64,000 nt of DNA from Escherichia coli (GTDB lineage: Bacteria; Pseudomonadota; Gammaproteobacteria; Enterobacterales; Enterobacteriaceae): NCBI RefSeq assembly GCF_001677475.2, contig NZ_CP015229.1, one strand, 5' to 3'. The stretch's first letter is position 1; each line of letters begins with the position of its first letter. A model generated the notes under the pieces. The model was given only the letters and a program-made list of their open reading frames with translations. It had not been told where the DNA came from and made no database searches. This document shows positions 62,274 through 62,316 of this stretch, in pieces. Position numbers and translations under genes: made by a program.

Positions 62274-62289
62274 TACCCCTTAAGGAGTA
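62274..62289 (+). promoter_or_regulatory. NarL/NarP 7-2-7 heptamer pair in the nirB promoter
   Basis: TACCCCT-TA-AGGAGTA inverted heptamers matching TACYYMT, centred 28 bp upstream of the FNR site. Confidence 0.65.
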
Positions 62290-62302
62290 TATAAAGGTGA
62301 AT

Positions 62303-62316
62303 TTGATTTACATCAA
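62303..62316 (+). promoter_or_regulatory. FNR binding site of the nirB promoter
   Basis: Perfect consensus TTGAT-TTAC-ATCAA, centred about 65 bp upstream of the nirB ATG. Confidence 0.85.

Follow-up and report, generated by a model that had tools for sequence, protein, structure and literature searches.

At the right end of the 64,000-nucleotide stretch of Escherichia coli DNA analysed here (the window), two short inverted repeats lie in front of nirB. This raises the question of whether they belong to the nir promoter and, if so, whether this promoter is controlled in the same manner as its K-12 counterpart. A preliminary description of the window had read the repeats as the nirB promoter with the nir architecture, and had considered this a known feature, not a novelty. 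The first judgment is supported by the identity of NirB, the near-identity to K-12, the site positions given in the literature and the conservation across species, and the second is correct. Our analysis confirms that the nir promoter of the window is real, strongly conserved and already known. As had also been proposed, the motif pair gives the annotation a fixed point, here at the right end of the window, where it sets the start of nirB, its promoter and the boundary between tsgA and the operon.

The strain carries a textbook anaerobic, nitrate/nitrite-responsive control region. The nir promoter is a classic model of how a global activator, a two-component regulator and nucleoid proteins integrate signals, and is in use as an anaerobically inducible expression promoter. 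Its established picture is unaltered by the present analysis.

Genomic context of the tsgA-nirB spacer

The nirB coding sequence is an open reading frame on the plus strand that begins at 62375 and runs past the window end at 64000, covering the first 541 codons (the N-terminal 541 residues). Its product was identified as the nitrite reductase large subunit NirB through NCBIfam NF011565, with 1182.9 bits against a cut-off of 883, and RefSeq annotates nirB at the corresponding position in matching E. coli genomes. Upstream and on the same strand lies tsgA (60932-62113), likewise assigned by NCBIfam and the RefSeq annotation of matching genomes. The end of tsgA is followed by a terminator-like hairpin (62122-62147) and then a T-rich tail. 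The FNR and NarL/NarP motifs both lie within the tsgA-nirB spacer of 261-262 bp, 59 bp 5' of the nirB ATG (62375). The placement is that of a nir operon promoter, with nirB directly downstream and tsgA upstream, and the spacer serves as the promoter for nirBDC-cysG, the operon of the cytoplasmic NADH-dependent nitrite reductase.

This arrangement is nearly universal in the species. The spacer was matched in 5,425 of 5,426 complete E. coli genomes with a best identity of 99.6%, and an annotated nirB always adjoined it. On a larger scale, the whole 64-kb window is colinear with positions 3431645-3495635 of K-12 MG1655 at 98.3-98.7% identity and without large insertions or deletions. The colinear gene content includes smg, smf, def, fmt, the ribosomal protein operons, gsp, bfr, chiA, tufA-rpsL, the crp region and nirB, while the narL, narP, narX, narQ and fnr genes fall outside the window. 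The closest complete E. coli genomes are 99.3-99.6% identical over the two stretches compared, and none is 100% identical. An Rfam scan of 60600-64000 matched no family and hence gave no known RNA element in the nirB leader.

Two perfect regulator motifs at the nir spacing

The FNR box TTGATTTACATCAA (TTGAT-TTAC-ATCAA) occupies 62303-62316 on the plus strand and is identical to that of K-12. Direct reading of this inverted repeat bears out the earlier claim of a perfect consensus, since it fits TTGAT-N4-ATCAA, as quoted in PMC3688515, at 10 of 10 specified positions. Its centre at 62309.5 would correspond to -41.5 relative to the inferred transcription start. In K-12, nirBDC-cysG has an FNR site at -41.5, a ChIP-seq peak and FNR-dependent expression (PMC3688515).

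The second motif, TACCCCTTAAGGAGTA (TACCCCT-TA-AGGAGTA), lies at 62274-62289 on the plus strand and has its centre at 62281.5, or -69.5. It was tested against the NarL/NarP 7-2-7 definition of two inverted TACYYMT heptamers with 2 bp between them (PMC10853779, PMC4549865). The resulting consensus TACYYMTNNAKRRGTA is matched without mismatch at this position, which is its sole match in 64 kb, and none of 100 dinucleotide-preserving shuffles contained a match. The spacing between the two centres is 28 bp, so the preliminary description was accurate on both the coordinates of the 7-2-7 site and its distance from the FNR box. NarL sits at -69.5 of the K-12 nir promoter (PMC10853779), and the published positions of FNR (-41.5) and NarL (-69.5) give the same 28 bp. 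We further relaxed the search to two or fewer mismatches in the FNR box and three or fewer in the 7-2-7 site, at a fixed start-to-start offset of 29 nt and in either orientation. Even then, the combination at the nir promoter remained the sole pair in the 64-kb window. A full-text search of the literature for the exact site sequences gave just one match, which was unrelated, and nir is not mentioned in PMC9314961.

The FNR consensus TTGATNNNNATCAA by itself is found twice in the 64-kb window, compared with 0.14 copies expected. The other perfect copy, TTGATATCCATCAA at 2200-2213, is located inside the coding sequence of def (peptide deformylase, 2046-2555), where it encodes VDIHQ, and is not upstream of any gene start. 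Because of this location, and because the main text of the FNR ChIP-seq study (PMC3688515) makes no mention of def, it was set aside as a regulatory site. Chance or coding constraint probably accounts for this match.

Core promoter and flanking elements

Downstream of the FNR box, the hexamer TAAGGT at 62338-62343 on the plus strand (-13 to -8) belongs to the best-conserved columns in comparisons of 87-101 species. We take it to be the -10 hexamer on account of its spacing and of the K-12 promoter. There is no recognisable -35 element upstream of TAAGGT, and the FNR box takes up that position. A scan of 62050-62450 for the sigma-70 consensus accordingly returned 0 sites against 1.0 expected in shuffles, which points to activator dependence, as expected of a class II promoter, and does not argue against a promoter here. 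Placing the centre of the FNR box (62309.5) at the K-12 distance of 41.5 (PMC3688515) predicts a transcription start at the A at 62351 on the plus strand, 24 nt before the nirB ATG and 7 nt past TAAGGT. With the start inferred from K-12 in this way, the distance between the FNR box and TAAGGT fits an FNR centre near -41.5. The hexamer, the leader and the ribosome-binding site are the same in the window and in K-12.

The region from the Cra-like element to the -10 (62328-62343) and that from 62344 to 62374 (the whole 24-nt leader, with GAGG at 62366-62369) are nearly invariant in about 90 species. This invariance exceeds the need of a -10 and a Shine-Dalgarno sequence alone. The nirB mRNA has been reported as a target of RyhB (PMC8139620), and such targeting might add constraint on the leader.

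Further elements were located upstream. The IHF consensus is WATCAANNNNTTR, and the IHF-like element AATCAGCAATATA at 62263-62275 on the plus strand agrees with it at 7 of 9 specified positions. Its first base is at -88, and it shares 2 bp with the 7-2-7 site. The strongly conserved block CAAATCA at 62261-62267 (-90 to -84; 87 species) belongs to it. Bound IHF at -88 of the nir promoter clashes with NarL at -69.5 (PMC10853779).

The Fis-like element GTCTGTTTTTTGCAC at 62202-62216 on the plus strand, centred at -142, fits the degenerate Fis consensus GNNYRNNWNNYRNNC and is a putative site with weak cross-species conservation. The same position, -142, was reportedly assigned to Fis at the nir promoter by Browning et al. 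in 2000 and 2004. Fis is known to repress the nir promoter (PMC10853779) and to bind it with high affinity (PMC3547828).

A gapped alignment of 87 species marked additional blocks; due to the selection of its loci for carrying both sites, this alignment is informative at the other columns only. One block, ACTTAAGAAAAT at 62243-62254 on the plus strand (-108 to -97), presumably coincides with the region where a second Fis site (Fis II) and a second IHF site (IHF II) were reported in K-12. Others are ATTCCG (62235-41), GAAA (62223-26) and GCTGAATCGTTAAGGT (62328-43). A conserved block also contains a putative Cra (FruR)-like operator, GCTGAATCGTTAAG, at 62328-62341 on the plus strand, which is centred at -16.5 and overlaps the -10. 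Its assignment assumes the Cra consensus and the published position of -16.5 at the nir promoter, and Tyson, Busby and Cole are said to have described Cra regulation of the nir operon in 1997.

Conservation of both sites across species

To assess conservation, one genome per species (GTDB) was searched with a degenerate pattern derived from the NirB coding sequence only (IIGNGMVGHRFIE), a sampling that is blind to the promoter. This NirB-anchored scan yielded 120 loci from Escherichia, Citrobacter, Enterobacter, Klebsiella, Raoultella, Kosakonia, Pantoea, Erwinia, Yersinia, Rahnella, Hafnia, Morganella, Vibrio, Photobacterium, Psychromonas, Gilliamella and others. Within a 60-nt interval upstream of the anchor, the FNR box was perfect in 98 of the 120 loci and had one mismatch in 13. 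Nearly all of these boxes with at most one mismatch (99 of 111) begin 92 or 93 nt ahead of the anchor, which is also their distance in the window.

The 7-2-7 site is retained at the same distance. Of 109 testable loci, 91 carry the site exactly 29 nt 5' of the FNR box, with 0 (35 loci), 1 (34 loci) or 2 mismatches (22 loci), compared with a background of 0.0003 of other upstream positions at two or fewer mismatches. Among the 109 loci, the half-sites of the FNR box show T109 T109 G109 A109 T105 and A103 T109 C109 A109 A106, with variation in the central 4 bases. In the 7-2-7 site, the outer TAC/GTA are conserved to at least 90% and the inner positions vary within Y/Y/M. More specifically, the column that matches 62279, which is the consensus M, holds C in 60 species, whereas 43 have A and 6 have T. 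This pattern is typical of two sites for protein binding that are kept in constant helical phase. Exceptions are mainly found in distant taxa, including Psychromonas, Gilliamella, Morganella/Moellerella with a shifted site, and a Verrucomicrobia MAG, in addition to a few loci with 3 mismatches.

The Moellerella and Morganella loci (L019 and L037) retain a perfect FNR box, and their best 7-2-7-like site is located about 72 nt upstream of the start of the box, compared with 29 nt elsewhere. This suggests that nirB of Morganellaceae may have a different NarL/NarP geometry. In Escherichia albertii, the 7-2-7 position is occupied by CACCACTTAAGGAGTA, in which the conserved first T of the left heptamer is lost. 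For so close a relative of E. coli, this site is unusually degraded.

Proposed regulation and alternative explanations

We propose that FNR acts at this promoter as a class II activator at -41.5 and that NarL and NarP act as anti-repressors at -69.5, and we assign this account as a whole a probability of about 95%. No data contradicting it were found. The motifs, their spacing, the identity to K-12 and the conservation are direct observations, and binding, start site and anti-repression would carry over from the K-12 literature on the basis of the near-identity of the promoter sequence. Without oxygen, [4Fe-4S] FNR would dimerise and bind the box at -41.5. There, in place of a -35 element, it would recruit RNA polymerase as a class II activator to the weak -10 hexamer TAAGGT, with a start at about 62351. 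As long as FNR acts alone, a nucleoprotein complex with IHF at about -88 and Fis at about -142 and elsewhere would keep expression low. Once NarX/NarQ sense nitrate or nitrite, a dimer of phosphorylated NarL or NarP would occupy the 7-2-7 site at -69.5. Due to the overlap of this site with the IHF element, IHF would be displaced and the complex remodelled, freeing full FNR-dependent activation.

This sequence of events follows published work, in which NarL at -69.5 displaces IHF from -88 and lifts the inhibition by Fis, so that FNR activates (PMC10853779, PMC3688515). Activation of nirBDC by FNR, NarXL and NarQP has likewise been described (PMC8139620). The earlier reading is refined on one point, as NarL and NarP act at nir, according to the literature, by anti-repression and not by classical direct activation.

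NarL and NarP could nevertheless be direct, class I-type activators that touch the alpha-CTD of RNA polymerase from -69.5, as at yeaR and ogt, instead of relieving IHF and Fis. Direct contact between NarL and RNA polymerase has been seen by cryo-EM at yeaR (PMC10853779), and a site that lies a multiple of the helical turn upstream of a class II activator has a geometry that would allow alpha-CTD contact. However, footprinting and mutational work summarised in PMC10853779 and PMC3688515 indicates that NarL at nir displaces IHF and removes Fis inhibition. The conserved IHF-like block furthermore abuts and overlaps the 7-2-7 site, as expected under competition. In an ihf fis double mutant, reportedly described by Browning in 2004, FNR-dependent expression from the K-12 nir promoter was already maximal and did not rise further with nitrate or nitrite. 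Direct activation is on balance quite unlikely here, and we retain anti-repression as the role of NarL and NarP.

Two further readings concern the identity of the motifs themselves, and each has a negligible chance of being right. If both motifs were functionless matches in an AT-rich spacer, the perfect FNR consensus inside def would be a precedent, as it demonstrates that a single perfect box can occur without an obvious promoter role. Yet the joint expectation of the two motifs is minute, with no 7-2-7 match in the 100 shuffles and no second pair in the relaxed search, and both sites and their spacing are kept in about 90 species despite diverged flanks, next to the direct evidence from K-12 (PMC10853779, PMC3688515). 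A chance match is ruled out by these statistics and by conservation. The inverted repeat could otherwise be bound by CRP in place of FNR. The T before GA is the FNR-discriminating base, and the half-site is TTGAT/ATCAA and not TGTGA/TCACA. CRP and FNR are indeed paralogues with related palindromic sites of 22 bp and 14 bp, and CRP controls nitrate/nitrite respiration in some gammaproteobacteria, such as Shewanella, for which PMC3519889 describes CRP-dependent control. In E. coli, FNR occupancy of the nir operon has been reported by ChIP-seq (PMC3688515), and this result together with the half-site sequence excludes CRP in favour of FNR.

Comparison with related promoters

The promoter of the window shares with K-12 pnir (nirBDC-cysG) the tsgA-nirB locus, an identical FNR box, -10, leader and spacing, and the positions of FNR (-41.5), NarL/NarP (-69.5), the IHF-like element (-88) and the Fis-like element (-142). 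It differs in the left heptamer, which is TACCCAT in K-12 and TACCCCT in the window (-72).

In contrast to nir, E. coli pnrf drives the operon for the periplasmic cytochrome c nitrite reductase, and its NarL/NarP site at -74.5 has another spacing from the FNR box. According to Wang and Gunsalus in 2000, nrf and not nir is reportedly repressed by high nitrate. The two promoters are alike in their FNR dependence, in their induction by NarL/NarP via a 7-2-7 site upstream of the FNR box and in their suppression by nucleoid-associated proteins (PMC5434802 for pnrf). The yeaR and ogt promoters have the same 7-2-7 NarL recognition element as nir; unlike nir, they carry it at -43.5/-44.5 (ogt also at -77.5) and have no FNR box, and NarL itself recruits RNA polymerase (PMC10853779).

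The 7-2-7 allele of the window and its distribution in E. coli

The window and K-12 MG1655 differ at 11 of 286 aligned bases. Ten of these substitutions lie upstream of -122, one of them at a degenerate position of the Fis-like element. The single difference within 62229-62400 (about -122 to +50) is at 62279 (-72), where the window has C (TACCCCT) and K-12 has A (TACCCAT). A comparison with the published nir footprint, which had been suggested as a check, gives a K-12 site, TACCCATTAAGGAGTA, that departs from the window at this one base, and both heptamers conform to TACYYMT.

To count the alleles, 40-mers with the variant base inside every 28-base seed word were searched in the 5,426 complete E. 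coli genomes. The heptamer of the window, TACCCCT, was found in 3,818-3,842 genomes (about 70%) and that of K-12, TACCCAT, in 1,206-1,208 (about 22%), with a third form, TACCACT, in 126-128 (about 2%). The K-12 reference is the minority allele of the 7-2-7 site and the window carries the majority allele, which is the sole new detail of this analysis.

The published data on NarL/NarP binding refer to the K-12 allele, one base off the site of the window. TACCCCT is also the heptamer of an engineered palindromic narG -89/-89 site, TACCCCTAAAGGGGTA, for which NarL has high affinity and with which it has been co-crystallised (PMC4549865), so that there is no reason to expect weaker binding by the window allele. 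The one-base variant of the window presumably behaves like the K-12 allele, and a large functional effect of the -72 allele seems unlikely. It is doubtful, if conceivable, that the A/C polymorphism at -72 tunes the affinity for NarL/NarP, and thereby how strongly nitrate and nitrite induce nitrite reductase, from one E. coli lineage to another. If it did, the laboratory reference promoter would stand for the minority state.
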